Part shown: piece by piece, positions 26,402 to 40,081 of the stretch
Position numbering within the stretch: position 1 is the first letter of the stretch
How the letters are laid out: each line of letters begins with the position of its first letter
Source of the DNA: a phage
Length of the DNA: 64,000 nucleotides
Direction: 5' to 3' (one strand)
Sequence record: PZ445443.1
Translations under genes and position numbers: made by a program
Notes under the pieces: generated by a model
What the model was told of the DNA's origin: nothing
Seen by the model: only the letters and a program-made list of their open reading frames with translations
Database searches by the model: none

Positions 26402-26420
26402 TTTTTTAACTGAATTATCA

Positions 26421-26444
26421 AGGGGCTTAGGCCCCTTTCTTTTT
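26421..26444 (+). terminator. rho-independent terminator
   Basis: AGGGGC-TTAG-GCCCCT hairpin followed by TTCTTTTT. Confidence 0.7.
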
Positions 26445-27052
26445 GTCTGCTCTTCCCCTACCATAAACGGCCATACATGGCAAGTGGAATAATTGACGAG
26501 CCATCAATCCCACACACTGTACAAATATACATGTAAAATAACTATTGCATAACTTTTCATTGTGTGGTAGCAGGGCCATTTTTACACGTTTTTCCTTCCA
26601 AAATTGCACGTAATGCAGCATTTGCACAAAATTTAACCTGATGCATATCTTCAATAGCTTGTCAACAACTAAAAATCTTTATAAGTCATACACTTACATA
26701 ACTACAAAAGCGTTTTCTACGTGAAAAATCGAGTATAACTATAGCCGCCAGACCTCAGAATTTACGTACGCTCGACATTCTATAGCCTGCTAAGCATTTA
26801 TTCCAACCATAGAATAACGGAATAGTCAATACCTGCATAAAATAATTATTCGTGTAAACTGCATAACATAAATCGGCCCAGGTGTCAACATTTTTCGTAA
26901 ACAGTCCGAAATTATCACTATGAGTTATCATAAACAGGGAAATCTTTAGTCGTCTAATGTTTACTGTACATTACTATACTGACTGGAATCATTAGATGAC
27001 TAAGAGAAAGATAAGAAATAATTAACAATACAATTATTTTATCTGTAACAAT

Positions 27053-27322
27053 AAGGCAACTATGCAAACGAATGGCATGGCGCGACGGAGTCGCGACATA
27101 ATATAAAAGCAGTAACCATCACCCCCGTGATAGTTTGTCTGCAAACTATTAATCAGATCATAGTTGCCTTGTATTTAGTTAATCATGACATAACAAGCAA
27201 GGCAACTATAGATCTGCTAATAGTTGCCCTGCTTTTATATTATGTCATAGAAACACCCGAAGGGGTGACCAAAGGTCACCTGGCATGGCCAGTGAAAGAT
27301 TATTAACTTGCTAATAGTTATC
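27053..27322. repeat. array of 11 bp motif AAGGCAACTAT in both orientations (about 5 copies)
   Basis: AAGGCAACTAT at 27053 and 27199; reverse complement ATAGTTGCCTT at 27160; close variants at 27220 and 27314; flanked by duplicated GCAAACGAATGGCATGGC (27064, 27325). Confidence 0.6.
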
Positions 27323-27354
27323 ATGCAAACGAATGGCATGGCTGATTATCGGTG

Positions 27355-27440
27355 TGTAAACAGTCAATCATGTAAATGGTTAGCATGTGAACAATCAGGA
27401 ATGTAAACAATCCAGTGTGTAAACTAATAGGTGTGTAAAA
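27355..27440. repeat. six phased TGTAAAC-like repeats at about 16 bp spacing
   Basis: TGTAAAC 27355, TGTAAAT 27371, TGTGAAC 27386, TGTAAAC 27402, TGTAAAC 27418, TGTAAAA 27434. Confidence 0.6.
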
Positions 27441-28029
27441 GTGTCATGTTGTGTCAGTTAGGTCACATTATGTCATATTGTGTCAGACAAGTTTTTCTCC
27501 TCTTTGTCAAGTGCTGCATGAAAAATTTACAATCTGGTATGGTAGCATTTTTGCGGCCCTGTTTACATTCAGGGGTGTATGTATAATCCTTGTTGTGTGG
27601 GCGTTTAGACGTCTGGACGGTCAGAAGTCTGCAGGTTAATATCTAATCTATTGGCTGCTAACTATATCCCACACAAATAGTAAGAAATATGATTGTTATA
27701 TGCGTAAACTGTAACTCATGTTATCAATCCCTGTATGTATCGCCAGTGGTGCGCATAATGGGTATTATGTTAAATTGCCCGTAATGATAAAGGTTCTCAC
27801 AATGATAGGTATTCTCATTCACCCCCACAAAATAGATTGCAAATGTTGTGCCACTGTGTGAACGGCCTAGCCTATTAATTTGCCTCACTGCCTCGATATT
27901 TGAGAATTGTTATAAGAATGAGAAGTATTCCCATTTCGTCCGCCTGGCAGCACTCCTGTAGGTCAGGTCAAAATCGTGGTAGAACTGGACCTGTTCAGAT
28001 ATTTCTGGCTGACTCTTCAGGTCTGTGTG

Positions 28030-28555
28030 GGAAAAGCCAACCTCTCCGGCGGGGCAGGGGATAGGTCAATTAAAAAATTTACGTGGTGTATGAAGCGCTC
28101 TTCAGGTAAGGCAGGTATTATGGGATGAAACCCTCTTCAGGCAATGATATTTGTGGGTGTGATATTTGCTGGAAAGCCAGATATGACGGGACTCCCGGCG
28201 GGGCAGGGGTGGTACAGACAGGGAAAATATGAAGGATGTGGTTGGGTAGATTGATCAGACAGGTAGAGTATGGAATATGTTACAAGTATGTTAAATATGG
28301 AGGTTGAATATCTGTAGGATTTGTGTGTAAAATCAAAGACTTAAGTGGTGTTGTGGTATTTTCTATAAATAATTCAAGTTTAATAGGTGATATTTGTCTC
28401 TATCCGCTTTGTGTGGTAAACAGATTCAGATGAGATTGGTTTACAAGTGTATACATAATATACAAATTAAAGATACAAGAAACCCCCCTCCCCCTTCGGC
28501 TACCATTCACCTTTTCCTCTGACTGGTACTTAAACACTTATTCAGACTCTTCAGG
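28030..28555. repeat. dispersed direct repeats CTCTTCAGG (x4) and CCGGCGGGGCAGGGG (x2)
   Basis: CTCTTCAGG at 28030, 28115, 28150, 28547; CCGGCGGGGCAGGGG at 28063 and 28212, each preceded by AAAGCCA. Confidence 0.55.
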
Positions 28556-28905
28556 TTATCACCTATATATCATATGGCAGTGACTGGTGTCCTCCGGCCC
28601 CTCTTTCGTCACCCGTCCGCTTCGCCATGCTAATGCCATAGCCAATGGTTCGGTTGTTCACCCTGTTCACTCAGGTGTATCTCCATACCCCTTCAAACCG
28701 AAGAGAACAGAAAACCCGAATTACTCGGTAAAAGAAAAGAGAAGAACTTAATTTTATCAGGATAGGCAAGAATGTCAAGGCATGACTGCTCACTAAACAA
28801 GCAAACAGTCATGTGTGGGAGGTAAGTGATTGTGGTGGTAGGAAATTTAGTTGAAAGATGTGTTATAGGTGCTTCCAGCACTTTAGCCGGGCAGCTAATT
28901 GTGTG

Positions 28906-29121
28906 TCAGTCCAGCGGTTCATCCTCTACTTCACTGAAATCAATGTTCATGGTCTCCTCCCAACCATCGATCTCAGCACAAGAGTGGAGTTCTTTAGGGT
29001 TTACTCCCAAAGCCTCAGCAACAGAGTCTATATTTAACACCTCTGGCAGGTATGATTCATCAAATTCAAGGTAAATCAGGCCACGAGTGTTGTCAGCCCC
29101 ACCAAATATTTCTATCTTCAT
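28906..29121 (-). CDS. hypothetical small acidic protein (MKIEI-type N-terminus)
   Basis: ATG after AGGAGA RBS; last gene of reverse block. Confidence 0.5.
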   Translation of the reverse strand: MKIEIFGGADNTRGLIYLEFDESYLPEVLNIDSVAEALGVNPKELHSCAEIDGWEETMNIDFSEVEDEPLD

Positions 29122-29242
29122 GAAATCTCCTCTGGAAATGAGAGTGTGAACAGGGTTTTATGCGTTCCAATACGCTGGAATTATACACGTTTGCCTCTTC
29201 AGGCCATGCTTTAGCATGAGGAACCTGTGTGGGCTCGGTGCT

Positions 29243-29656
29243 TCATAGTCTACCACCTCTGAACTCTTCGTGCTCAGGCATAATAGAGAACCAGATATCT
29301 ACGATGTCTCCCCACGTTAGGTCATCAGCCTCAGGATCTACCTGGAGCGAAGATGGAGAATCTTCAGAATCGAAGTTTTCCTCTTTCACTGGCTCAGCCA
29401 AGGGACATATAGCCACTCCTTTGGATGTCTCTTCAGATGCATGTGTGTTTATCATGTTCCACCCGTGAGTATTCCGGCAACAGCCACTATGGACGTAATG
29501 ATCATCAGAATCACCACCAAAACCTCTGACAATGTTTTCATTGTGTATCCCATATTCTCCAAACGATGTGTGGATACTATCACTGGAGCGACAATGTGTC
29601 AACAGAAACGCCGCGAGGGTTTGGTTAAAATCCGAGCGTATGGTGATTTGGGTCAA
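29243..29656 (-). CDS. hypothetical protein (start uncertain)
   Basis: Co-oriented ORF; acidic C-terminal half; alternative ATG at 29455 would give 70 aa. Confidence 0.35.
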   Translation of the reverse strand: MTQITIRSDFNQTLAAFLLTHCRSSDSIHTSFGEYGIHNENIVRGFGGDSDDHYVHSGCCRNTHGWNMINTHASEETSKGVAICPLAEPVKEENFDSEDSPSSLQVDPEADDLTWGDIVDIWFSIMPEHEEFRGGRL

Positions 29657-29815
29657 AACGGACGTGCGTTCTCGCTACGCTCGAAATATAGAGTTGTTTG
29701 CAGGAAGCTCTTAAACGCTCTGTAATGAGATTAACTACCCAAGGTATGCAATCGTGCACCAGATAAAGAAAAGGACGCCACAGAGCGTCCTAGGTGTCTT
29801 AAATTTGATATTTTG

Positions 29816-30115
29816 CTATACCCACGAGGGCTTATCAAGATTGGAGTAGCTGAAAGGTGTCAAAAGGTGACTGTCAAAATCTCTCAAACTATCCAAATCT
29901 TTTTCCTCGTCCTGACACCATCTGTGCCTACATTTATTGTTGTAGTGCATGGAATGCATAGCGTTCTGCAACTTAACAGGCACAAGTGATTCAGGAGTAG
30001 ATAGTATTGTAGGGTATGCCAGAACCACCTCAAACAGTGGAAACACATCGAAACTAAAGTCTACCTCTGCAGAGGTTGATGGCATATAGGAGTATTTAGC
30101 CGCCTTTGTAGACAT
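29816..30115 (-). CDS. hypothetical protein
   Basis: ATG 30115 after GAGGTGG (track start GTG 30127). Confidence 0.45.
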   Translation of the reverse strand: MSTKAAKYSYMPSTSAEVDFSFDVFPLFEVVLAYPTILSTPESLVPVKLQNAMHSMHYNNKCRHRWCQDEEKDLDSLRDFDSHLLTPFSYSNLDKPSWV

Positions 30116-30123
30116 AATCCACC

Positions 30124-30450
30124 TCACACAGGTTTGATAATACCTTCACCGAATAACTCTTCATATCTAATCTTATCCGGATCCCACTCCTGGATAATTT
30201 CGAAGACAATATCCAACCCAGGAATAATCACTTCTCCAGTGTCAAGTTTGGCAAGAACAAAACCAGAAGGCTGAATGGTTTCCCAGTTGCGACGATTGGA
30301 ATAGAAGACCTCGAAAATATCACCGACCTTGATCTGTTGATCAAGATGTTCAAGATTCTCTTTCATATAGACGCAGCGGATTTTTCGTGCAGGCCATAGA
30401 CCACCTGCATCACGTTCATTTAGCTCTTTCACAGTGATTGGCATTCTCAT
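30124..30450 (-). CDS. hypothetical protein
   Basis: ATG 30450 after AAAGGAA RBS, downstream of terminator hairpin. Confidence 0.5.
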   Translation of the reverse strand: MRMPITVKELNERDAGGLWPARKIRCVYMKENLEHLDQQIKVGDIFEVFYSNRRNWETIQPSGFVLAKLDTGEVIIPGLDIVFEIIQEWDPDKIRYEELFGEGIIKPV

Positions 30451-30465
30451 AGCTGGTTCCTTTTG

Positions 30466-30496
30466 CAAATAGTGAAAGAGGGGCCGTAGCCCCTCT
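30466..30496 (-). terminator. putative intrinsic terminator (reverse strand)
   Basis: AGAGGGGC-TACG-GCCCCTCT hairpin followed on the reverse strand by TTTCACTATTT. Confidence 0.45.
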
Positions 30497-30502
30497 GCCA
30501 TA

Positions 30503-30808
30503 TTATTCTACAGAGCGTTTGAACAGAATGTCTGCCTCAGACATGTGCTCAACCTCTTCTTCAATCTTAGCGCGACGTTTTTCAGCTTCGTAGCGGATAT
30601 CAAACTCTGTAGCCACCAAAGATTTGATGAATTTAGGAGAATACAGATGATCCTGCTTCTCAACAAGAATGATATCCTTGATGGCATCTTTCAAATCTTT
30701 AATCTGAAGCTGGAGTTCCACCAGTTCTTCAATTGTTTTGCGAAGGCGATCACGTTCTGCAGTGTCAGAAGGAAGAGAGGTGAACAGTTCAACTTTAGAT
30801 TTAGCCAT
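30503..30808 (-). CDS. hypothetical coiled-coil protein
   Basis: ATG after AAGGAG RBS. Confidence 0.5.
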   Translation of the reverse strand: MAKSKVELFTSLPSDTAERDRLRKTIEELVELQLQIKDLKDAIKDIILVEKQDHLYSPKFIKSLVATEFDIRYEAEKRRAKIEEEVEHMSEADILFKRSVE

Positions 30809-30836
30809 AGTAAGAGTCTCCTTATGTTGTTTTAAA

Positions 30837-31088
30837 TTAACGTTCTACAAAAATACCGTTCAGTTCAATAACCAGGAATTTCTGGTCTTCACTATCGTCT
30901 CGTGCCAACACCTCACAGACGTATCGGTCATCCCCATCATCATCGCAGTCAAATACAAGACTGAGGACTTTATCATGATAAACCTTCGCCACTATCGCCT
31001 CGTAAGTATTGCCGATTGTGAATCCAAGATAATCTCCAATGCATTTGACAACAACATGATCGCCAGCATTCAAGTCAATCTTCGTCAT
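30837..31088 (-). CDS. hypothetical protein
   Basis: ATG 31088 after AAGGGG RBS. Confidence 0.45.
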   Translation of the reverse strand: MTKIDLNAGDHVVVKCIGDYLGFTIGNTYEAIVAKVYHDKVLSLVFDCDDDGDDRYVCEVLARDDSEDQKFLVIELNGIFVER

Positions 31089-31243
31089 TACTGCGCCCCT
31101 TGGGTAATAATACTGTATGTAAAACTTTAACCAGAGATGTGAATAACGCCCCAAAACACACCGATAGCGCTAAAACAGACAAGGCCATCATTAAAGCTTC
31201 AGTAAAATCAGTCACCCCTCACCTCTTGTTAGTCACTATACTG

Positions 31244-31507
31244 TCATTTATCCTTGCCGTCAAGAACTTTTTTAAATCTTTCAGGGATATCGCCTGTTCT
31301 TAGATAGCTCATGACCTCACAAGGTTCCCACTTAAATTTCTTACAAAGCAGGGCGGCTGAGATTGTTTCATTGCGAAAAGAAAGGATATTAATATCCCAT
31401 TCTGAGAACCCCAACTTCCGAAGGGTAGCTACAGAAATCCTCACCGCAACCCAGCAGCAAAAACATGCAACAAACGCCACTGCTATAACCCACATCAGGA
31501 TGTTCAT
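31244..31507 (-). CDS. putative membrane protein
   Basis: ATG after GAGGTG RBS; N-terminal hydrophobic WVIAVAFVACFCCWVAV. Confidence 0.5.
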   Translation of the reverse strand: MNILMWVIAVAFVACFCCWVAVRISVATLRKLGFSEWDINILSFRNETISAALLCKKFKWEPCEVMSYLRTGDIPERFKKVLDGKDK

Positions 31508-31596
31508 ACAAGCACCTCACTGAAATACAAGACACAGTGTTAAGGTTACTGACCAGCAAATAATTAACAGTGCCGTTGCAACCTTGGCAAGATTTA

Positions 31597-31884
31597 TCAT
31601 AGTGCCTCTAAGATTTCATATCCTTCGGGTCGGAATACAAGCCACTCCGTGGCTCCGTTTGGTCGATACGCTTTATACAGAACAACCTGATCTCGGCACA
31701 TGCACATAGCTACATAGTTTTCATCCACACCTGCAGCCTGCATTGCAGCTTCTTCTCCGGCAACTGCTTTGCTTACAACCTCCTTGGTAGGCAGGTGTGC
31801 GATCAGCTCGTCACCATCATTAATTCCAAAATGACTGAGTTCTCCATTGGTATCTTTAATCTTAATCTTAACCAGATCTTTCAT
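31597..31884 (-). CDS. hypothetical small protein
   Basis: Co-oriented ORF, ATGA overlap with upstream gene. Confidence 0.5.
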   Translation of the reverse strand: MKDLVKIKIKDTNGELSHFGINDGDELIAHLPTKEVVSKAVAGEEAAMQAAGVDENYVAMCMCRDQVVLYKAYRPNGATEWLVFRPEGYEILEAL

Positions 31885-32213
31885 TAGTCTTCCTCCAGGT
31901 TCAAAGGCCCTAAGATTTCATATGCCAGATTAGAAGTTACCAGAGGGTCTTCTGCATCTTTAGTATTGTACCACCCGTGAATAACCAGAGTCCCACTTTG
32001 TTTCATGTCCAACTGGAACTCTTCTGCCGTTTCCTCATCCAGCTCCAAGATTTCCATGAGGTATTTGATGTTAGGAAGGTATGCAGCTGTTACAGTTCCC
32101 TCCACCAAACCTTCGGGCCAACCTACATCCGGATGACAAGTAGGAACCAAGTTGGTCAACTTAATGGTGTACGCTTTTTCTGCACGAGCCTTCAGTAACG
32201 GGTCAATCTTCAT
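31884..32213 (-). CDS. hypothetical small acidic protein
   Basis: Co-oriented ORF, start/stop overlap with neighbours. Confidence 0.5.
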   Translation of the reverse strand: MKIDPLLKARAEKAYTIKLTNLVPTCHPDVGWPEGLVEGTVTAAYLPNIKYLMEILELDEETAEEFQLDMKQSGTLVIHGWYNTKDAEDPLVTSNLAYEILGPLNLEED

Positions 32214-32563
32214 TATTCGTCCTCCTCTTCGGTGCCTGCTTCCAGTAATAAGTTAAGAATATCTTCTGCACAAGGCTCATAGAACTCTTGGCCTTCATTA
32301 TCGATGATTTTGTAGTCATCTCCGCGAATAATCAGAGGATCACTCTCAAAATTATCGAGACCTTTAACAACGACAACACGATCGATTGCCATCATTGTAA
32401 GAACTTTATCGACATCTTCCTCTGCTACACCATACTGCAGCAGAATGTCTTTGGTAGGAGGAACAGCATCCACCACAACACCGTTACCAAAACCTTCCGG
32501 TAAGTTAGCTAAAATATCTTCCGGAACCACACTAACATCAAAACCAGTAATTTCTACTTTCAT
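32213..32563 (-). CDS. hypothetical small acidic protein (paralog family B)
   Basis: MKVEITG start, GFGNG motif, acidic C-terminus; similar to 32564 and 33985. Confidence 0.5.
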   Translation of the reverse strand: MKVEITGFDVSVVPEDILANLPEGFGNGVVVDAVPPTKDILLQYGVAEEDVDKVLTMMAIDRVVVVKGLDNFESDPLIIRGDDYKIIDNEGQEFYEPCAEDILNLLLEAGTEEEDE

Positions 32564-32824
32564 TTACAGCACCTCTTCGTCAACTACTTCATAAAAATGG
32601 CCTGGGATTGCAATAGCGTTCTCACCTTCACCTACAAACACAGTTCCGTCAAGAATCAACATCATAAGAGTTTCTGGAATATCCTCTTCCTGAACGTTGC
32701 CAAAACCTTTAATCAGCTCGTAGGTTGGAAGATTTACCTCTAAGATGTCACCATCTTTAGAGCGGAAATCAACACCATCCTGAATCTCTGCCATTTCAAG
32801 GTTTTTCAGTTTAATCTTCATCAA
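32564..32824 (-). CDS. hypothetical small acidic protein (paralog family B)
   Basis: MMKIKL start, GFGN motif, C-terminal FYEVVDEEV. Confidence 0.5.
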   Translation of the reverse strand: MMKIKLKNLEMAEIQDGVDFRSKDGDILEVNLPTYELIKGFGNVQEEDIPETLMMLILDGTVFVGEGENAIAIPGHFYEVVDEEVL

Positions 32825-32900
32825 TCAGTCTCCCGTCTTGTTAAGATGAAGGTATTATTTCACACAGGGTTGGTGTTGTCAACACCTGTGTGCAAGAAAA

Positions 32901-33293
32901 TTACTGAAACAGTGCGGATAAATTACCTTCTGGTGGGAACTTATCTGCCAAAAACGGTGTTAGCACAGTAGCCTTCTGAAGATCTGGGGTCCACTCGTTG
33001 TTCAGAACATCCCAGTAGTACGCAATGTTGCTGTGTGGGTGCCGCATTACGAACTTTTTCCCTTCGTAGTCATCTGAAACCTCTACAGAAGAAATGACAA
33101 CAGAATCTTCAAGTTCTTCATAGAAAGATCCGCCTTCAAATTTCCAACGAGATGCAAGAGCCCCTGCCTTGAACGCTGCAGATAACGGACTGTCGGCAAG
33201 AACATACATTTCTTGCACTCTGTCGCTGCGATCTTTGCTTCTTACGTTGTATACAGTATCTGAGCTATACTCAACACGGTATAGGCTTACCAT
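32901..33293 (-). CDS. hypothetical protein (paralog family C)
   Basis: Shares HP...YWxxxxxxWTP segment (VMRHPHSNIAYYWDVLNNEWTP) with 35100-35498. Confidence 0.5.
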   Translation of the reverse strand: MVSLYRVEYSSDTVYNVRSKDRSDRVQEMYVLADSPLSAAFKAGALASRWKFEGGSFYEELEDSVVISSVEVSDDYEGKKFVMRHPHSNIAYYWDVLNNEWTPDLQKATVLTPFLADKFPPEGNLSALFQ

Positions 33294-33652
33294 TACCGCA
33301 CCTCCTCAATAACTTCCACATCTGAACCCACCACAAATGCAAAAGGACAGGTTTCATGAAAGACATCCGGATCGCCGCCAAGCTTGCTAACAATTTCTCC
33401 ACCACTAATAAACACAAGCTCACCGATATTCATCAGATTGCTGAAATAGTATCCATAATGATTAAAGAATGCAGCAGGGTCAGGTAGACTAGTAGCCTCA
33501 AGCACTACATCGGTTGAGGTTACTTTCTTATCATAGCCTCTCGCCTTCTGAGATGCAAGATCTGCAGAATCCTCAGGCGACCGGAGATGCACAGGAATTG
33601 TTTCACCAATAAAGCGTACTTTCATATTATCACCCAACAACCATAGCTTCAA
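33293..33652 (-). CDS. hypothetical protein (paralog family A)
   Basis: Contains MKVRFIG and C-terminal FAFVVGSDVEVIEEV like 35511, 35755, 39410. Confidence 0.5.
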   Translation of the reverse strand: MKLWLLGDNMKVRFIGETIPVHLRSPEDSADLASQKARGYDKKVTSTDVVLEATSLPDPAAFFNHYGYYFSNLMNIGELVFISGGEIVSKLGGDPDVFHETCPFAFVVGSDVEVIEEVR

Positions 33653-33893
33653 AAGGGGTCATGAACGAATAAACGGCATCATCATCTGCTTCAGGGAATG
33701 CTCCCAAAGACTTCATGTCAGATCCCTTGACAAATACAAGGTTTTGATCAAAGGCTTCTTGGGGATCAATCCGATACATATTTCGTAGAATATCTCCTAC
33801 CTCCTCATCAAGAGGTGAGTATGCTGTGCACGTTTTTCCGATCAAGCTTTGAGAATCAGGGTATCCACCTGAAGTTTTAAAATAAACAATCAT
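33630..33893 (-). CDS. hypothetical protein (paralog family A)
   Basis: ATG after GAGGTG; LIGKTCTAY and VFVKGSD...AVYSF segments resemble family A. Confidence 0.5.
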   Translation of the reverse strand: MIVYFKTSGGYPDSQSLIGKTCTAYSPLDEEVGDILRNMYRIDPQEAFDQNLVFVKGSDMKSLGAFPEADDDAVYSFMTPFEAMVVG

Positions 33894-33984
33894 ATAGTAT
33901 CACCTCTGGTAAGAGATTGGGATTCCTTTCCCACAAATAATTACAAACCTTCCTTGTCGAGGAAGTATGCTAATCCAAGCAGGA

Positions 33985-34254
33985 TTATTCCTCTACAATC
34001 TCATACACATCCGGAGTTACAATCAACTCTTCTCCGTTACCCGGTGCAACAAACACCACCAAACCTTCAGGTGTGTGCTTTTTAGCCATCTCGATAACAT
34101 CTTCTCGCAGAGCTGGCTCCATCAGATCAAAACCTTCACCCAGGGCATCACGAACCACCTTCATATAGTCAACTGGTTGTGCTTCGACAATCATGCCTTC
34201 AACCAGTCCACAGTTTTTGTCTGCCAGCTCAGTTTTGAATAATTTAATTTTCAT
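33985..34254 (-). CDS. hypothetical small acidic protein (paralog family B)
   Basis: MKIKLF start, C-terminal VYEIVEE. Confidence 0.5.
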   Translation of the reverse strand: MKIKLFKTELADKNCGLVEGMIVEAQPVDYMKVVRDALGEGFDLMEPALREDVIEMAKKHTPEGLVVFVAPGNGEELIVTPDVYEIVEE

Positions 34255-34280
34255 TTAGAGGTCTCCTCAATTATTTGATA

Positions 34281-34382
34281 TTAATAGCCGTAACCTAACA
34301 CATTAACTACAACTGCGATTGCAAACATAATTTCAAAGCATGCAATCTCTACATTTGGGACTAATTTCTTAATCACGCCCAT
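34281..34382 (-). CDS. small hydrophobic peptide (33 aa)
   Basis: ATG after GAGGTG; MGVIKKLVPNVEIACFEIMFAIAVVVNVLGYGY; RBS overlaps the hpf stop. Confidence 0.3.
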   Translation of the reverse strand: MGVIKKLVPNVEIACFEIMFAIAVVVNVLGYGY

Positions 34383-34391
34383 TGTAGCACC

Positions 34392-34709
34392 TCATTCTCC
34401 AAAGTCAATCTTTACTTTGCCTTTCCCCTTACCTTTCTTTCCACCGCATTTAGCCAGCTGACGTGCTGCAACATCTACCATACGGTCAGTTGCCTCGTAA
34501 GCATCACTACCTTTAGCCTTGGCAATAACTTCTTTTCCAGAAGTGTCAAAAATGAACGCCATAACTTCCTGGTGATCATTTTCAACTTTTACACTTACAC
34601 GTGCATGATTTACAGAAGGATGTAGACGCTCCAGTTTTGACATTTTGTGGGAAATGAAAGACACCATGCCTTCGGTGATTTCTACGTTGCCAGTGATCTC
34701 AATTTGCAT
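34392..34709 (-). CDS. hpf: ribosome hibernation promoting factor / RaiA (YfiA) homologue
   Basis: MQIEITGNVEITEGM...KLE...VKVE...G.E.IAKAKGSDAYEATD...ARQL aligns along its length with E. coli HPF (MQLNITGNNVEITEAL...KLEQ...LKVEK...EGQDMYAAIDGLIDKLARQL); own promoter and RBS. Confidence 0.8.
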   Translation of the reverse strand: MQIEITGNVEITEGMVSFISHKMSKLERLHPSVNHARVSVKVENDHQEVMAFIFDTSGKEVIAKAKGSDAYEATDRMVDVAARQLAKCGGKKGKGKGKVKIDFGE

Positions 34710-34756
34710 AACGTGTTCCTTTTAAAGAAGAGGGAATAACTCTCTCTTTGAAAACA

Positions 34757-34785
34757 ATAATACTATAGCTGAAGCGTTGTGTCAA
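34757..34785 (-). promoter_or_regulatory. sigma70-like promoter for hpf (reverse strand)
   Basis: Reverse strand reads TTGACA, 17 bp spacer, TATTAT. Confidence 0.55.
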
Positions 34786-34791
34786 CAGTTT

Positions 34792-35082
34792 TTACAGATT
34801 GTTGTCGATAGTATTTAAAATATCCACAGCAAGATTTGCCATTTTTCGAACATACTCTGCAAACTCAACAGGATCCTTGATCAAAGAATTTACAGGGTCG
34901 TACCCTAGAGCGTTCAAAATGGCTGCAGCATCTACAACCTTTTCATCATTTGCAAAGATCTCTCCGTCAAACTTATAGGTCCATTTTGAGTCAATCTTGG
35001 CAGGGCATGGCTGGTCCATGCTTGTTACACCATCGTCTTTAACCTCTCCTGCGTTATCAATATTCAGAACTAAATCCATCAT
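34792..35082 (-). CDS. hypothetical protein
   Basis: Co-oriented ORF upstream of hpf promoter. Confidence 0.5.
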   Translation of the reverse strand: MMDLVLNIDNAGEVKDDGVTSMDQPCPAKIDSKWTYKFDGEIFANDEKVVDAAAILNALGYDPVNSLIKDPVEFAEYVRKMANLAVDILNTIDNNL

Positions 35083-35099
35083 AGTGGCACCTCACTGTT

Positions 35100-35498
35100 T
35101 CAGTTTAGCTTTTCTTCAACAACCCCATAGCTCGGGGCAGAGTCAAGAGCTTTTTGGTTTAAAAGTGGTGTAGCAGAATCTGCAAACGGTGTCCAAGTTT
35201 TTGTTCTGGCATTCCAGTAATGCTTCACTCTGGAATCTGGATGCACTATAACAAAAACTTTTTCACTTGTCAACACATTAATTTCTTCTACACCCTTGCT
35301 GATAATTTCTCCGTCATAGCCCCCAGTCTGGTATCCTTCGTACCAGGTTCTTGCATAGGCATAGCCAGCCTGCCAGCATGCAGCCTCCTCCGAGGTGGAG
35401 ACTACGTAGAAGTCTTTCTCAAATTCTGGAATACGCCCTTGCTTTACGCTCCAAGCTCCGCGAATTTTCATTGTAACTTTAAACAGTTTATTTTTCAC
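35100..35498 (-). CDS. hypothetical protein (paralog family C)
   Basis: VIVHPDSRVKHYWNARTKTWTP matches the 32901 paralog. Confidence 0.5.
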   Translation of the reverse strand: MKNKLFKVTMKIRGAWSVKQGRIPEFEKDFYVVSTSEEAACWQAGYAYARTWYEGYQTGGYDGEIISKGVEEINVLTSEKVFVIVHPDSRVKHYWNARTKTWTPFADSATPLLNQKALDSAPSYGVVEEKLN

Positions 35499-35510
35499 AA
35501 CGGTTACCCA

Positions 35511-35765
35511 TCACAGCTCTACAATATCTGCATCTGACCCTACCCCAAAGGCATAATAGGACTCTTCCCCGAAATAATATTCAGGTGCACCAGCGGTGAT
35601 CAGGTCTGATCCCAAGATAAACACCACGTTGTGGCCTACATAACTGTGATGTTGCCGCACAGGATCATCCCACGGCAACCCTTCAAAGTATACCGCAGGA
35701 ACTACCTTTCCCTTCAGGAAGGATTGTCCCAAGTAGACGTTAGAATCAAGAATTTTAACCTTCAT
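35511..35765 (-). CDS. hypothetical small protein (paralog family A)
   Basis: MKVKILD, GKVV, DLITAGAPEYYFG motifs. Confidence 0.5.
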   Translation of the reverse strand: MKVKILDSNVYLGQSFLKGKVVPAVYFEGLPWDDPVRQHHSYVGHNVVFILGSDLITAGAPEYYFGEESYYAFGVGSDADIVEL

Positions 35766-35982
35766 GATCGTCCTCCACTACCTCTACATCCTCGCCTAGG
35801 GCAAAGTTGTAGGTCCACTGACTGTCAAAGCAGTCCTGAGGTGCACCAGCGGCAATAAGATCTGCTCCTTTTATTTTTAAAAGGTCAGGGTAATCTTCGT
35901 TAGGGACAGCAGTAAACACTTTTCCTACTAAAGGCTCCTGACCAATATAGAAGCTTGAATCTAAAACTTTAACTTTCATCAA
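35755..35982 (-). CDS. hypothetical small protein (paralog family A)
   Basis: MMKVKVLD, GKVF, DLIAAGAP, EVVED motifs. Confidence 0.5.
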   Translation of the reverse strand: MMKVKVLDSSFYIGQEPLVGKVFTAVPNEDYPDLLKIKGADLIAAGAPQDCFDSQWTYNFALGEDVEVVEDDHEG

Positions 35983-36266
35983 CGGTCTCCATCAGGTGGT
36001 TGTGGGACGTAAACACTGTTACGAATATCGTCCGCAGTATAGTAATAAGTGTCTCCAACCCTATCTCTGGCTGCAATGTACTCTGCTATACCAATAAGTG
36101 CCATTGATTTGGTGGCGTATCTTCCCAGCTCGTTAGCTCCCCAGTAGAATTTAGACCAATAGGGAATAAGACCGAACAAATATACCTTTTGACGAACTTC
36201 CCAGTAAGTGCCTTTCCCGACAAGTTTAAACTCAACTTCACCACTGTTAATCTTTTTCATTATCAA
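35979..36266 (-). CDS. hypothetical protein
   Basis: Co-oriented ORF, ATGA overlaps. Confidence 0.5.
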   Translation of the reverse strand: MIMKKINSGEVEFKLVGKGTYWEVRQKVYLFGLIPYWSKFYWGANELGRYATKSMALIGIAEYIAARDRVGDTYYYTADDIRNSVYVPQPPDGDR

Positions 36267-36559
36267 TCTCCCTCCACCGTGGTTGGATTGTCAGTAAGAA
36301 ATTGAGCATTAGCTGGAGGCACGCCTGACATTTTCCACACAACCATAAGTTTGTAACCAGGCACTCTATTAAGTGCAGATCGAGTAGAGTTTGTGCACGT
36401 ATATTTTCGCTTTCCAAACCCGTTCTCCATCATAATCCAGTACCCAGTATCTTTGTCACCAGGTATTGGTAGACCACCTTCATCAACCCACTGAATGGAC
36501 CACGGCACGATGGCTACAGCTTTATATTTAAACTTTTTAAACCACTCAAAAAGTTTCAT
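36263..36559 (-). CDS. hypothetical protein
   Basis: Co-oriented ORF. Confidence 0.5.
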   Translation of the reverse strand: MKLFEWFKKFKYKAVAIVPWSIQWVDEGGLPIPGDKDTGYWIMMENGFGKRKYTCTNSTRSALNRVPGYKLMVVWKMSGVPPANAQFLTDNPTTVEGD

Positions 36560-36562
36560 AAT

Positions 36563-36652
36563 TCAGCCTCGCATAGACATAATCACTATAAACAGGCAAA
36601 CAATGAATCCGAATGCCACGCCACCCATAAACGTTAATATTGATGCAATCAT
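36563..36652 (-). CDS. small hydrophobic peptide (29 aa)
   Basis: ATG 2 nt after upstream stop; MIASILTFMGGVAFGFIVCLFIVIMSMRG. Confidence 0.3.
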   Translation of the reverse strand: MIASILTFMGGVAFGFIVCLFIVIMSMRG

Positions 36653-36654
36653 AG

Positions 36655-36840
36655 TCAATCAGCCTCGCTTGGCAATTCTTCCACCTTAACATGCCGAAAA
36701 GTGTTACCGTAATGGTTGATCCATGACATCAGCTCACTTTCTTGCTCTTCCTCTGGGATGAACTCTCGAATACTGACAAGTTTTAAGAAAACCCAATCAC
36801 AATCTGCACCCATTCTACCAGACAGACAATAGTGCTTCAT
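36655..36840 (-). CDS. hypothetical protein
   Basis: Co-oriented ORF. Confidence 0.45.
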   Translation of the reverse strand: MKHYCLSGRMGADCDWVFLKLVSIREFIPEEEQESELMSWINHYGNTFRHVKVEELPSEAD

Positions 36841-36859
36841 AAAAACCCTCCACCCTGGT

Positions 36860-37060
36860 TTAGAATACTGCCTCTTTTAATGATCCAAGGAGCAGCAGGT
36901 GTGAAATCTGATCCACATTCATGGTAGATTCAATCTCCTCTCTTTTGAAAGGTTCTCGGCAAAACAGTACTACATTCGGGTTTTCGCTACGCACTATATA
37001 ATACAGATCGTTCAAATCATTCTCATAGTAGGTATTAAATTTAAGAATTTTGTCACTCAT
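36860..37060 (-). CDS. hypothetical protein
   Basis: Co-oriented ORF. Confidence 0.45.
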   Translation of the reverse strand: MSDKILKFNTYYENDLNDLYYIVRSENPNVVLFCREPFKREEIESTMNVDQISHLLLLGSLKEAVF

Positions 37061-37344
37061 TTTCTAATCCTCTTCTTAGATTTTTGGGGAGAAACGCTTT
37101 CTGCAATACGAGACAAACGTTCTTCTGAAGCCTTGCCTATTCCAGGTTTTTTGAGTGGATTATCTTTATGACCACAATCCAATTGGATATTGGATACCTC
37201 TCCAACCTTGTAAGTCAATTCTAGCAAAAGGTTGTCGTCCTTGTCAAATGTTCTTACGATAAATTTTTTATCGTTCTCCTGAACTTCGTATCTGGTACCT
37301 GCAGTATACAGCATGGTGCCATCAGCATAGGATATCCAGATCAT
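37057..37344 (-). CDS. hypothetical protein
   Basis: Co-oriented ORF, ATGA overlap. Confidence 0.5.
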   Translation of the reverse strand: MIWISYADGTMLYTAGTRYEVQENDKKFIVRTFDKDDNLLLELTYKVGEVSNIQLDCGHKDNPLKKPGIGKASEERLSRIAESVSPQKSKKRIRK

Positions 37345-37688
37345 TGAACCTCCTTCTGCTGCAACAGCATTAACTCTTTGTTAGAGATCTTTACTGCTGT
37401 TTTTATTGTTCCATCTTTACGGAACCACGACCAGAACTCTACAGTGTCCCCACTATCAAGCAAAGCATACCCGTGGTAGAAGTCTTTGTCCTTGGACAGT
37501 TTCTCATCTATGTCTGCATCGACACATTCGTGATCCATAGCATTTTGCCTGAATGCATCGGTTATGCCAATGCACGCCTTGCTCTCAAAACTGGCATATC
37601 CGATATCTTTTAATTCAGTTTCCCAAACCCAGAACCCTATAAAAGCCACAACAGCTACCCACATTAATATCGATTTAATCTTTGACAT
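37341..37688 (-). CDS. putative membrane-anchored protein
   Basis: N-terminal hydrophobic ILMWVAVVAFIGFWVW. Confidence 0.5.
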   Translation of the reverse strand: MSKIKSILMWVAVVAFIGFWVWETELKDIGYASFESKACIGITDAFRQNAMDHECVDADIDEKLSKDKDFYHGYALLDSGDTVEFWSWFRKDGTIKTAVKISNKELMLLQQKEVQ

Positions 37689-37748
37689 TCTCTCTACCTC
37701 TTTCTTAGTTTATTTAGTTATGGCACATCCTTTGTGCCTTATTGCACG

Positions 37749-38210
37749 CTACTTAAACAACAGTTCAAGATAGTGCAAAATTAACAGAAGTTGAATTACG
37801 CCTAGCACCACGGCAAGTATGTTAATCTTAGAATCAAAAAACTTCTTAACTTTTACCCTAAAAGGCTCCTTGATGTCCTTTACGATCCTATTTATAGATG
37901 ATTTCATATCCCTGATTACCATCCTAAACATTAGAGACGGATCTTCCTTCTCTGTAATAGAATCGAAAACATACTCTCTTCGGTCATAAGGACCTCCAGA
38001 TCTGCGTATTAACCTCTCCACAGAGACCTCGTACGACACACCTGTAACGTAATCATCTATGACAAGTAGTGACGGGTCTTTATCATCTAAGGGTATCAAA
38101 GTTATCTTTCCAGATTTTGTTAAAATTTCTCCTTTTTCAAGCAAGGTGTACCAATGCTCTCTACCAAGATTGTTGAGGCACGTTTTTACATATTTAACAA
38201 ACATCGTCAC
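37749..38210 (-). CDS. hypothetical protein with C-terminal transmembrane helix
   Basis: C-terminal ILAVVLGVIQLLLILHYL. Confidence 0.5.
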   Translation of the reverse strand: MTMFVKYVKTCLNNLGREHWYTLLEKGEILTKSGKITLIPLDDKDPSLLVIDDYVTGVSYEVSVERLIRRSGGPYDRREYVFDSITEKEDPSLMFRMVIRDMKSSINRIVKDIKEPFRVKVKKFFDSKINILAVVLGVIQLLLILHYLELLFK

Positions 38211-38392
38211 CCCTCATCGCACGTCTGATATAACCATTCTATGAAATCTTGATACCATTCGCCCTCTGAGCGCTCCGTAGGCCAATAATCTTCACCCTCT
38301 CGTGCATTAAAATCTGAGTATTCAACTTTCCACTCCTTTACCAGTTCGTGTAGAAGGTTTTCAGCCTGTTCTAAGGATTTATTTTTTGTCAT
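38207..38392 (-). CDS. hypothetical protein
   Basis: ATG 38392 after AAAAAGGGGA (track start TTG 38410). Confidence 0.45.
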   Translation of the reverse strand: MTKNKSLEQAENLLHELVKEWKVEYSDFNAREGEDYWPTERSEGEWYQDFIEWLYQTCDEG

Positions 38393-38498
38393 TACTGTCC
38401 CCTTTTTCAAGATAATTATACATTAGCGCCGCACCACCCAAAATGGCTACCAGCAGTAATACTCCTGAGAGCATTTCAATAAACATGGCTTGAAACAT
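38379..38498 (-). CDS. small hydrophobic peptide (39 aa)
   Basis: ATG after AGAGGGGA; start overlaps stop of 38498-38629 ORF (TAATG). Confidence 0.3.
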   Translation of the reverse strand: MFQAMFIEMLSGVLLLVAILGGAALMYNYLEKGDSNDKK

Positions 38499-38629
38499 TA
38501 GAAGGTCCCCTCTAATTTCACGCACCATTTTAAATACACACTCTTTTCCCATGAAGATACTGAACTAAGGTCTGTATAGAATGCAATCTCCCTAAGAACA
38601 GTATAAACAGTTTCAGTCACTGTTACCAT
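38498..38629 (-). CDS. hypothetical small protein (43 aa)
   Basis: ATG after AGGAGG RBS lying within the 3' end of 38613-38849. Confidence 0.3.
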   Translation of the reverse strand: MVTVTETVYTVLREIAFYTDLSSVSSWEKSVYLKWCVKLEGTF

Positions 38630-38849
38630 TCTTATCTGCCTCCTTCATTTTTCTGACGGTTTTACAGTGATCTACCAAGCACATAACAACAATGAAGAGA
38701 ACGACAGGCCAAAAAGGTGCGGCAGTGATTATAATTATAAAGTCGTCAAACTTCACCCTTCGTGTGAACACGATGCATACACCTGTCAAGAATACAGCCG
38801 TTATAACGGCTATTACCAGGTAACCTATTAGCACAACATTTATACTCAT
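38613..38849 (-). CDS. putative membrane protein
   Basis: Two hydrophobic segments (VLIGYLVIAVITAVFLTGVCIVF; PFWPVVLFIVVMCLV). Confidence 0.5.
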   Translation of the reverse strand: MSINVVLIGYLVIAVITAVFLTGVCIVFTRRVKFDDFIIIITAAPFWPVVLFIVVMCLVDHCKTVRKMKEADKNGNSD

Positions 38850-38879
38850 TAGTCCTCCCTTTGTAGGTTAAATTATATA

Positions 38880-39413
38880 CTACAGATGGTTGCTGATGGT
38901 GTCAAGAAAATTATCTCGTTCTTTCTCGGAGTTTTCACGGGTGTAGCTGAAAAACATATCTAGAATAACCTTATTGATATATTCCAGCTCCTCTGTGTTC
39001 AGGTACTTAGCAGGATCTACAATGACATCCCAAATATCATACAGACCACACTCATGATATCCATAACGCCACTCAATTGTCAAGCTGAGCGGCAAATCTT
39101 TACCGTCACAAACAACCTTCCATCTACATATGTTGGTATCTGGGCGTATCTGTGCACGGTATACCTGTACAAAATCCAATTTGAATTTGAGGTATTCGTC
39201 ATGCAATTTAAGCACAAAGCTCTCGATTTGTGGAGACACTTTTGCAGCAAACTGTGCGTATTTGTATTTGCACTGGATGATCTTTCTGCGTTTTGCAGTT
39301 AAATTTTTTGCCGCCAGTTGTTCTTCAGTGTATCTCCACCTACGATCAATAAACGCAACAGGGTCTTTGTCCCCATAGAGGTCTTCCCAGTTAATCAGAA
39401 GCATACCTGTCAC
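38880..39413 (-). CDS. hypothetical protein
   Basis: Co-oriented ORF, 177 aa. Confidence 0.5.
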   Translation of the reverse strand: MTGMLLINWEDLYGDKDPVAFIDRRWRYTEEQLAAKNLTAKRRKIIQCKYKYAQFAAKVSPQIESFVLKLHDEYLKFKLDFVQVYRAQIRPDTNICRWKVVCDGKDLPLSLTIEWRYGYHECGLYDIWDVIVDPAKYLNTEELEYINKVILDMFFSYTRENSEKERDNFLDTISNHL

Positions 39414-39643
39414 TCCTCCACAACTTCAAGGCCTTTGCCGCCTCGCTCTGGCAGATTACTTAAAGACAGGTAATACGTATAGTCAGGAGAGATCCTGCCA
39501 GACTCTGCACCTGCAGCTAGTAAATCTTTTCCCTTAACCATGACAGCATTATCGTTTGCAGATAGTCGTTTTGCTTCCACAATTTTACCAACGCAGTCAA
39601 CCAAGGAAGGGTACCCTAAATCTGTAAGAAATTTAACTTTCAT
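39410..39643 (-). CDS. hypothetical small protein (paralog family A)
   Basis: MKVKFL, GKIV, DLLAAGAE, EVVEE motifs. Confidence 0.5.
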   Translation of the reverse strand: MKVKFLTDLGYPSLVDCVGKIVEAKRLSANDNAVMVKGKDLLAAGAESGRISPDYTYYLSLSNLPERGGKGLEVVEE

Positions 39644-39682
39644 GCTACCTCCTACTTCTACCGTCCCTGGTAAGATAAATTA

Positions 39683-40081
39683 TTACTGAACAGAGCGCGG
39701 AGCTGGGAAGGATAACTCTTCTAAAGAGAAGATTTCATTTCCCACAATCCATGTTGCAGGATCATCTGGGTTGACTGGATAGATAATCATCACCTCGTCA
39801 GTGTTACATACCCGCTTTTTACCTGTGGAGTCATCAGCAACCAGCATGCGCGGTTCTTCAGAAATGCACAGGTAGCCTCCTCGGCCCACTGTTCCTTCCA
39901 CAGGGTCTTGTCCTTTGATCACGATGATTATCTTCTCTCCTGAGGCGATATTACCTTGCACACTCACCGTTTGACCAACCTTGGATGTGCCAATCTTAGT
40001 GACTTCGAACATTACATCCCGAATTACTGTTGCATAATCGCCAGACACTTTCTTACCTTCTTTAGTGATCTCAATCTTCAT
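39683..40081 (-). CDS. hypothetical protein
   Basis: MKIEIT start; co-oriented. Confidence 0.5.
   Translation of the reverse strand: MKIEITKEGKKVSGDYATVIRDVMFEVTKIGTSKVGQTVSVQGNIASGEKIIIVIKGQDPVEGTVGRGGYLCISEEPRMLVADDSTGKKRVCNTDEVMIIYPVNPDDPATWIVGNEIFSLEELSFPAPRSVQ

Follow-up and report, generated by a model that had tools for sequence, protein, structure and literature searches.

What do the small proteins that recur in the minus-strand gene block of an rV5-like phage do, and are they truly copies of one another? This question is raised by positions 28906-40081 of a 64,000-nucleotide stretch of phage DNA (record PZ445443.1; the whole stretch is called the window below). The closest records to this region were Escherichia phage nimi (96.6% identity) and rV5 (95.3%), with 122 phage records matched, and because of these identities we assign the window to Vequintavirus (rV5-like phages). 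The rV5 counterpart of the region, open reading frames (ORFs) 126-163, consists almost wholly of genes annotated as hypothetical. A preliminary description of the window had noticed families of small acidic proteins here, called A, B, and C, and had connected them with host takeover or anti-defence. We found three paralogous families with twelve genes (five in A, five in B, and two in C, all on the minus strand and named here by their first coordinate), which are genuine old paralogues encoding small soluble early proteins. The reading that we favor, at a probability of roughly 50%, is that these genes form a repertoire of small early accessory host-interaction proteins, most probably directed against strain-specific anti-phage immunity.

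Family A has five members, listed here in the order of transcription with the E values from a hidden Markov model (HMM) described below (aa, amino acids; nt, nucleotides; pI, isoelectric point; dN/dS, ratio of nonsynonymous to synonymous substitution rates):

39410..39643, minus strand: family A, 77 aa, pI 5.4; HMM E=7e-21; phrog_5009 E=1.9e-35; dN/dS 0.15
35755..35979, minus strand: family A, 74 aa, pI 4.05; HMM E=5e-24; modelled with AlphaFold
35511..35765, minus strand: family A, 84 aa, overlapping the adjacent 35755 by 11 nt; HMM E=1e-15
33630..33893, minus strand: family A, 87 aa, pI 4.1; HMM E=8e-7; phrog_5009 E=1.2e-4
33293..33625, minus strand: family A, 110 aa from MKVRF, pI about 4.7; HMM E=3e-6

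An all-against-all comparison by BLASTP of 37 consecutive minus-strand block proteins, the kind of check that the preliminary description had proposed, showed that the similarities are significant: five pairs reached E<1e-3 against about 0.04 expected by chance, and all five lay within families A and C. Within A, the scores were E=9e-15 for 35511 and 35755, E=5e-7 for 35755 and 39410, and E=4.5e-4 for 33293 against each of 35755 and 35511. The HMM was built only from 32 unrelated metagenomic representatives, none of this phage lineage, and is therefore independent of the window; among 732 window ORFs it matched exactly five genes (next best E=0.35), and these are the same five that had been proposed at the outset. 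The family signature, MKVKLL...GKVV.A...G.(D/E)LI.AGA...Y.F..G.E.E(V/I)(V/I)E, is complete in 39410, 35755, and 35511, and degenerate yet aligned in 33630 and 33293. A crude neighbor-joining tree placed 35755, 35511, 33630, and 33293 in one clade, and 39410, with its "LPERGGKG" loop, in a separate subfamily that is also found elsewhere (it groups with the homologues P0026, P0012, and P0040). At the DNA level, the sole repeat between paralogues is 30 nt long and lies at the GxDLIxAGAP motif of 35511 and 35755.

Family B also has five members, and one further ORF is listed with them as a rejected candidate:

33985..34254, minus strand: family B, 89 aa, pI 4.4; modelled with AlphaFold
32564..32821, minus strand: family B, 85 aa, pI 4.1; leave-one-out E=1e-4 to 1e-3, 0 of 1000 shuffles; dN/dS 0.32
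32213..32563, minus strand: family B, 116 aa, pI 4.05; leave-one-out E=1e-5 to 7e-5, 0 of 1000 shuffles
31884..32213, minus strand: family B, 109 aa, pI 4.4; leave-one-out E=1.1e-3 without 28906 in the profile, 0 of 1000 shuffles
31597..31884, minus strand: family B, 95 aa, pI 4.8; leave-one-out E=1e-5 to 3e-5, 0 of 1000 shuffles
28906..29121, minus strand: small acidic ORF of 71 aa, not a member

Because pairwise scores within B were weak, membership was tested with leave-one-out HMMs and 1000 composition-preserving shuffles of each left-out protein. The five genes were recovered at E=1e-5 to 1e-3, and none of the 1000 shuffles reached their scores. The list of members thus differs in part from the one first put forward: 32213, 32564, and 33985 stand, 31597 moves from possible relative to member, 31884 had been missed, and 28906 has to be dropped (0.6 bits against the B profile, a score matched by 265 of 1000 shuffles, and no leave-one-out match at E<10). 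With 28906 kept in the profile, the leave-one-out value of 31884 was E=0.03. Similarly, the proposed B motif holds at its ends, where N-terminal MK(I/V)K and C-terminal YE(I/V)(V/I) align across the family, but its central "GFGN" falls in non-homologous columns of 32213 and 32564 and is therefore a coincidence. The B proteins carry a net charge of -6 to -22 over 85-116 residues (pI 4.05-4.8), and 32213, with 29 D+E versus 7 K+R, has an additional acidic C-terminal tail.

Family C is a pair of proteins of about 130 aa, unrelated to A and B (hhalign of the A and of the B profiles against C found no similarity):

35100..35498, minus strand: family C, 132 aa from GTG or 123 aa from ATG, pI 7.8; phrog_7379 E=4e-74
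32901..33293, minus strand: family C, 130 aa, pI 4.7; last gene of the hpf transcription unit

The kinship of these two, as claimed before, was borne out by BLASTP (E=2e-8 over 110 residues) and by end-to-end matches of both to phrog_7379, and the reported motif HP..YW..WTP lies in aligned columns of the two proteins. Gene 32901 is one codon shorter than its orthologue in Bas54 (phage MaxBurger, MZ501093; 130 versus 131 aa), and its alignment to rV5, Bas57, and Bas54 is gapped; its tblastn identity to other Vequintavirus genomes is about 90%, yet the protein is 98.5% identical to that of Bas54, which suggests a short local indel or a compensated frameshift in this isolate.

Are these ORFs genes, and how old are the copies? 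A Shine-Dalgarno sequence is present at each family ORF, and many of the ORFs overlap a neighbor by 1-11 nt. Summed over comparisons with three Vequintavirus genomes (rV5, Bas57, and Bas54), dN/dS for the eleven gap-free family genes was 0.04-0.22 in A, 0-0.32 in B, and 0.09 for C 35100, with 32901 left out because of its indel; the family genes are under purifying selection. A divergent relative from a public sequencing run (Logan DRR842919; contig L011), only 34-81% identical, retains the complete A and B families together with C 32901, in unchanged order; protein identities are 44-81% within A, 34-56% within B, and 39% in the case of C 32901, in whose orthologue the HP..YW..W(T/V) motif is retained; several neighboring genes are 85-91% identical, as against the 34-56% of B. 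In the crude neighbor-joining tree every window gene pairs with its own orthologue in this relative, and hence the duplications all predate the split of the two lineages. Since, in addition, the only repeat left at the DNA level is the 30-nt one, the expansions are old and stable. The position of 35100 is occupied in the relative by an unrelated 106-aa gene, and an extra 98-aa gene lies between C 32901 and the B genes (L011 11389-11685); a precomputed label for the latter, PF27050 (Phage_P22_Y8K6), was not reproduced, as a Pfam scan of the translated ORF gave nothing at E<=0.1. Both differences show gene turnover at the borders of the modules.

The "small acidic" character ascribed to all three families applies to A and B (pI 4.05-5.4) and is mixed in C, where 32901 is acidic (pI 4.7) and 35100 is not (pI 7.8). 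Six of the ten A and B genes (39410, 35755, 33293, 32564, 32213, and 31884) end in Glu-rich codons (GAGGAG, GGAGGA, AAGAGG) that supply the GGAGG or GAGG of the ribosome-binding site of the next gene, so the shared "...VVEE" ending is partly imposed by translational coupling. Distant A homologues have the same ending, and this segment forms the last strand in the predicted structure. The acidic C-terminus is thus under a double constraint and should not be over-read.

The genes are arranged around the following features:

34757..34785, minus strand: sigma-70-type promoter, TTGACA-17-TATTAT, 11/12 consensus, intergenic, at the site of the annotated rV5 promoter P144
34392..34709, minus strand: hpf, a RaiA-type ribosome hibernation factor, PF02482 at 50.2 bits versus a cut-off of 23.7; not a family member
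32854..32882, minus strand: sigma-70-type promoter, TTGACA-17-AATAAT with extended TG, 11/12 consensus, intergenic, at the site of the annotated rV5 promoter P150

Transcription would run from A 39410 through eleven unrelated small genes to A 35755, A 35511, C 35100, and ORF 34792; then, behind the promoter at 34757..34785, through hpf, a tiny ORF, B 33985, A 33630, A 33293, and C 32901; and finally, behind the promoter at 32854..32882, through the four consecutive B genes 32564, 32213, 31884, and 31597 and a group of small genes including 29816 to a strong terminator-like hairpin at 29772-29791, which is located 3' of 29816 and coincides with a feature annotated in rV5. The sigma-70-type promoters fit early expression of the genes behind them. 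That the families surround hpf, as the preliminary description had it, is correct: the Pfam match confirms hpf, and family members lie on both of its flanks. The gene order A-A-C occurs twice in the cluster. Duplication of an A-A-C block was considered, and the crude tree showed no gene-by-gene pairing of the two modules.

Having established the families, we turn to what the proteins might look like. AlphaFold2 was run on the small family alignments for A 35755 and B 33985. The A model (mean predicted local distance difference test score, pLDDT, 92.8) has strands at residues 2-5, 21-23, 33-37, 56-61, and 65-69 and a short helix at 38-43; the B model (pLDDT 92.7) has strands at 2-5, 22-27, 66-69, 76-79, and 84-88 and three helices at 30-60. 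Both A and B are thus predicted to be five-stranded single-domain SH3-like beta-barrels, and the predicted barrels can be superposed on the SH3/KOW/PsaE fold. What the models establish, as predictions, is a generic SH3-like barrel and nothing more specific. The three-helix insertion of B lies between strands 2 and 3, in the same loop that carries the insertions of A 33630 (about 20 residues) and A 33293 (about 31 residues, with 6 aa more near its N-terminus). Sequence links between the two families are slight: hhalign of A against B gave a local P of 0.002 (0.0085 in an earlier run) at a probability of 5-13%, over 29 N-terminal columns covering strands 1-2 only, and neither did the A profiles match B genes nor the B profiles A genes. 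A single sequence family comprising A and B is therefore not established on this hhalign result, and we regard the two as sharing a predicted fold, with common ancestry plausible. Compared with known SH3-like small beta-barrels (SH3, the KOW domain of NusG/Spt5, PsaE, and the C-terminal domain of retroviral integrase), the likeness is one of fold only: sequence identity to A and B is 4-25%, A is set apart by a conserved GxDLIxAGA helix that follows strand 3 and B by its roughly 30-residue three-helix insertion, and both are stand-alone and acidic.

Searches for known relatives gave little. With Foldseek, the only matches among predicted viral structures were small phage proteins that are themselves uncharacterised, and several of these belong to the same phage. 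In Pfam, none of the twelve members had a match at E<=1, none of the 33 family A sequences had a relevant one, KOW (PF00467) and SH3 (PF00018 and relatives) did not match family members, and a scan of fused or longer A homologues yielded nothing. PADLOC had no match at E<=0.01 for ten members, and searches of PDB sequences with the A, B, and C profiles gave nothing meaningful. The PHROG assignments are phrog_5009, phrog_13920, and phrog_13661 for A (weakly also phrog_13367 and phrog_8603), phrog_11868, phrog_12359, phrog_12155, phrog_12457, and phrog_12794 for B, and phrog_7379 for C; E values for the window proteins against these profiles range from 1e-32 to 1e-76, and all of the families are labelled "unknown function." Three A members and both C members were already grouped in PHROGs, but family A as a whole is divided there among three PHROG families and each of the five B members has one of its own, with no fold, function, or expansion recorded, so the links among PHROG families within A and within B are new here. 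A literature search for the PHROG identifiers, rV5 paralogues, and SH3-like anti-defence proteins found nothing relevant, and the rV5 genome paper does not mention the families.

How widely are the families distributed? Word-indexed homologue searches for A, B, and C returned only near-identical Vequintavirus proteins, and an exhaustive profile search was therefore needed to find distant A relatives: among 1.84 billion representative proteins, it detected 48 at E<=1e-3, nearly all of 60-90 aa. Phages with distant A relatives include a Proteus podophage (two copies), T4-like phages of Citrobacter and Salmonella, in which the gene is located between gene 32 and frd (e.g., Citrobacter phage Ursula), a Pantoea Guernseyvirinae phage, siphophages of E. 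coli, and phages of Aeromonas and Klebsiella; in every case the neighbors are small hypothetical genes of early or replication regions. The family has been amplified more than once: five A copies flank the DNA polymerase of the IMG/VR contig L016, L004, L015, and L017 have two copies each, and fused tandem A proteins occur in metagenomes, with three repeats in P0032 and two in each of P0053 and P0025. Family A is a rare superfamily scattered over unrelated phages and repeatedly amplified. By tblastn, A and C were confined to Vequintavirus, and the B relatives found in the protein search were all rV5-like; no C or B genes were found beside distant A homologues (L004-L006 and L014-L020), and a search of 20 kb to each side of ClpP in Seunavirus (L002) and Mydovirus (L003), the sister genera, detected none of the three families.

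Evidence on function comes from saturated transposon libraries of Bas54, described in the HIDEN-SEQ preprint (10.1101/2025.11.20.689424). Between Bas54 and the window the genes correspond one to one, with proteins that are 94-100% identical, and the genes discussed here as hits in the transposon sequencing (Tn-seq), 0150-0152 and 0157, at 98-100%. On E. coli K-12, every gene of the block tolerates insertions; nine family orthologues are classed as non-essential and 0151-0153 as "Intermediate" (10.1101/2025.11.20.689424, supplementary file 9). The supplementary resampling table of the same preprint (10.1101/2025.11.20.689424) compares K-12 with CFE311, a uropathogenic E. coli, and gives the following values (log2FC, log2 fold change):

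bas54_0150, orthologue of C 32901 (98.5% identical): reads 108 on K-12 to 0 in CFE311, log2FC -6.77, q=0
bas54_0151, orthologue of A 33293 (99% identical): reads 71 to 0, log2FC -6.17, q=0
bas54_0152, orthologue of A 33630 (98.9% identical): reads 142 to 0, log2FC -7.16, q=0
bas54_0157, orthologue of C 35100 (100% identical): reads 256 to 57, a 4.5-fold reduction, log2FC -2.14, q=0
bas54_0153, orthologue of B 33985: reads 142 to 20, log2FC -2.78, q=1.0, not significant
29816..30115, minus strand: non-family neighbor, 99% identical to bas54_0140, log2FC -5.48 in CFE311

The Bas54 orthologues of A 33630, A 33293, and C 32901 are thus dispensable on K-12 (0150 non-essential, 0151 and 0152 "Intermediate") and required in CFE311. 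The four-gene B array, A 35511, A 35755, A 39410, and hpf showed no change in CFE311. The hpf gene is non-essential in Bas54 (log2FC -0.53 in CFE311, not significant), and its central position is therefore no evidence of a function shared with the families. Polar effects are an unlikely cause of the depletion, because insertions in the genes just upstream of 0157 (0158, 12 nt away) and of 0140 (0141, 8 nt away) were not depleted, both neighbors of 0157 were unaffected in CFE311, 0149 downstream of 0150 was neutral, and the T4 transposon lacks a terminator and allows read-through, with its authors arguing against widespread polar effects (10.1101/2025.11.20.689424). In supplementary file 9 of the preprint (10.1101/2025.11.20.689424), the numbers in the sheet "Data S6: resampling_K-12_vs_CFE303" are identical to those of S7, and its command line is that of the CFE311 comparison; the file as deposited thus seems to lack the CFE303 table.

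The neighbor bas54_0140 gives the closest precedent within the block, as it was validated by knockout as needed against defence system DS-28 of CFE311 (10.1101/2025.11.20.689424). It resembles the families in being a small protein encoded in the same early minus-strand block, downstream of the B-array promoter, and it resembles the A-A-C trio in tolerating insertions on K-12, where it is non-essential, and being needed in CFE311. It differs in that its counterpart here, 29816, is unrelated in sequence to A, B, and C (Pfam gave no match for it either), and in that its own target system is identified and tested by knockout. DS-28 and Gao_Tmn were the CFE311 systems cloned, bas54_0063 and bas54_0140 were the only genes knocked out, and the family-gene orthologues are not mentioned in the main text of that study (10.1101/2025.11.20.689424).

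We propose that the A, B, and C proteins would bind host proteins stoichiometrically, with parts of strain-specific anti-phage immunity as the most probable targets, and that duplication and divergence may have produced a repertoire of binders with differing specificities, which would explain why most copies are dispensable on any single host. The trio A(33630)-A(33293)-C(32901), read from one early promoter together with hpf and B 33985, would form a functional module required in CFE311, whose members may act jointly, with C(35100), the paralogue of the trio's C gene, contributing partially. Immunity is suggested as the target because of the strain specificity and because a validated anti-defence gene lies in the same block. 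The accessory nature of the families is supported by their absence near ClpP in the sister genera and by the insertions tolerated on K-12. The anti-defence or host-takeover role originally suggested thus gains from K-12 dispensability, the CFE311-specific requirement for 32901, 33293, and 33630, the partial one for 35100, and the neighbor bas54_0140, and it loses in that none of the twelve members is matched to a target and eight have no phenotype. To call such expansions a "hallmark" of these functions was a generalisation rather than a test.

Several points weigh against this proposal. No family member is matched to a defence system, a host protein, or an interaction, and eight of the twelve genes have no phenotype in either host (the B array, B 33985 with its non-significant value, and A 35511, 35755, and 39410). 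The phenotype of 0150-0152 rests on pooled Tn-seq in one comparison, with the authors' knockouts limited to 0063 and 0140, and only one strain comparison is available, since the CFE303 sheet duplicates the CFE311 table. Joint depletion of three adjacent genes could be a local cis or expression effect instead of three requirements of their own. Sequence comparison does not establish common ancestry of A and B (hhalign P=0.002, probability 13%, 29 N-terminal columns only), and the Shine-Dalgarno sequences of the next gene, embedded in the C-terminal codons, account for part of the acidity there.

What else could the families do? One alternative is general host takeover, in which the barrels would bind conserved machinery (RNA polymerase, Rho/NusG partners, the ribosome together with hpf, or nucleoid proteins) and redirect the cell early. 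Early sigma-70-type promoters, co-transcription with hpf, and the "Intermediate" rather than fully non-essential class of bas54_0151-0153 on K-12 are all in keeping with it, but conserved machinery fits poorly with twelve of twelve genes tolerating K-12 insertions and a strong phenotype that is strain-specific; there is also no Pfam KOW match, acidic proteins are unlikely RNA binders, and hpf lacks a CFE311 phenotype, so that we consider this alternative unlikely. DNA mimicry would be another, above all for family B, whose acidic proteins might imitate DNA and inhibit restriction or other nucleases in the manner of Ocr of T7, ArdA, and Arn of T4, which are acidic DNA-mimic anti-restriction proteins. 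The B proteins share with these, compared here by composition, small size, strong acidity (down to 29 D+E versus 7 K+R in 32213), early expression, and dispensability on permissive laboratory hosts, and their fast divergence, with 34-56% identity in L011 against 85-91% for several neighbors, also speaks for this idea. However, high negative charge is the only trait that sets them beside the known mimics: there is no sequence similarity and no match to any Pfam family, Ocr and ArdA included, the predicted SH3-like barrel with a helical insert is a different fold, no restriction phenotype is known for the proteins, insertions in the four-gene B array are without effect in both K-12 BW25113 and CFE311, and some of the C-terminal acidity is set by overlapping Shine-Dalgarno sequences. 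We judge mimicry improbable.

The same low standing applies to the idea that the Tn-seq signal is a local artefact of neighbor expression or a cis element, with the families being regulators of phage development or factors of inter-phage competition. The three fully depleted genes are contiguous, 33985 upstream of them is partly depleted (-2.78, not significant), clean knockouts of these genes are lacking, and the authors concede that locus-dependent effects are possible (10.1101/2025.11.20.689424); yet insertions just upstream of 0140 and 0157 and downstream in 0149 are neutral, and the unlinked C paralogue 0157 is depleted independently. That the ORFs are functionless duplicates or mis-called has in its favor the lack of known domains and of a phenotype for most members on two hosts, and it is excluded by selection, conservation, and phenotype: dN/dS is far below 1, ribosome-binding sites are present, the duplications predate the split from a 34-81% identical relative and have yet been kept, AlphaFold predicts the folds with confidence, and some of the genes have conditional phenotypes. 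Against these alternatives, we retain the repertoire of accessory host-interaction proteins as the favored reading. A bolder form of it, which we offer tentatively, is that the A-A-C trio with C(35100) as partial back-up would be a multi-component counter-defence or host-range module for infecting particular pathogenic E. coli, and that the family A barrel may be a widespread binder scaffold amplified and diversified, by insertions in one loop and by fused tandem copies, against host immunity.

Clusters of small, fast-evolving, non-essential genes with shifting copy number are familiar from the hyperplastic regions of T4-like phages, with their small non-essential early genes, and from the gene "accordions" of poxviruses, and a family A relative lies in one such region (gene 32-frd of Citrobacter phage Ursula). 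The window differs in that its copies are ancient and stable rather than recent amplifications, with the single 30-nt repeat at the DNA level. That such clusters of early genes can have anti-defence roles is already known; new here are the corrected membership, the prediction that A and B share an SH3-like fold and one site of insertion, the repeated amplification of A in unrelated phages, and the link to a strong, strain-specific Tn-seq phenotype.

A few observations concern the surroundings of the families. Six small genes at 36263-38210 (minus strand) are present in the window and in rV5 and absent from Bas54/MaxBurger, where the orthologue of 35979 directly adjoins that of 38207, an indel polymorphism within the early block. 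The sign of the GC skew switches near 28 kb, and positions 26402-28905, between convergent plus- and minus-strand gene blocks, form a 2.5-kb ORF-poor segment of low GC (0.386) in which tRNA and Rfam searches found no match. Iteron-like repeats with the core ATAGTTGCC, direct and inverted, occupy 27046-27342 of this segment. It also contains a direct repeat of 20 nt with exact copies at 27062 and 27323, an 18-nt inverted repeat whose arms, at 27095 and 27229, match perfectly, and a GC-rich 15-nt repeat that is exact between 28046 and 28195. Transposon insertions are not tolerated in the equivalent region of Bas54 (10.1101/2025.11.20.689424), and the segment is possibly a replication origin or another essential cis element. 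Finally, eighteen "Campylobacter phage" records (MG0656xx) are at least 95% identical to this E. coli rV5-like sequence over the whole region, and their host label looks doubtful.

With their broad host range, rV5-like phages are candidates for use against pathogenic E. coli in therapy and biocontrol, and most of their early genes are unannotated. Here, twelve hypothetical genes are reduced to three families, with one predicted fold for ten of them, and three genes are tied to a strong strain-specific requirement that is present in a public supplementary table and undiscussed in the accompanying text; the outcome is a small set of candidate host-range or counter-defence factors that can be tested. 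Should family A turn out to be a binder scaffold amplified repeatedly across unrelated phages, it would be a new, structurally simple class in the anti-defence repertoire, and its profile would serve to find further genes of this kind; family A would then be a phage-side analogue of a variable recognition repertoire.

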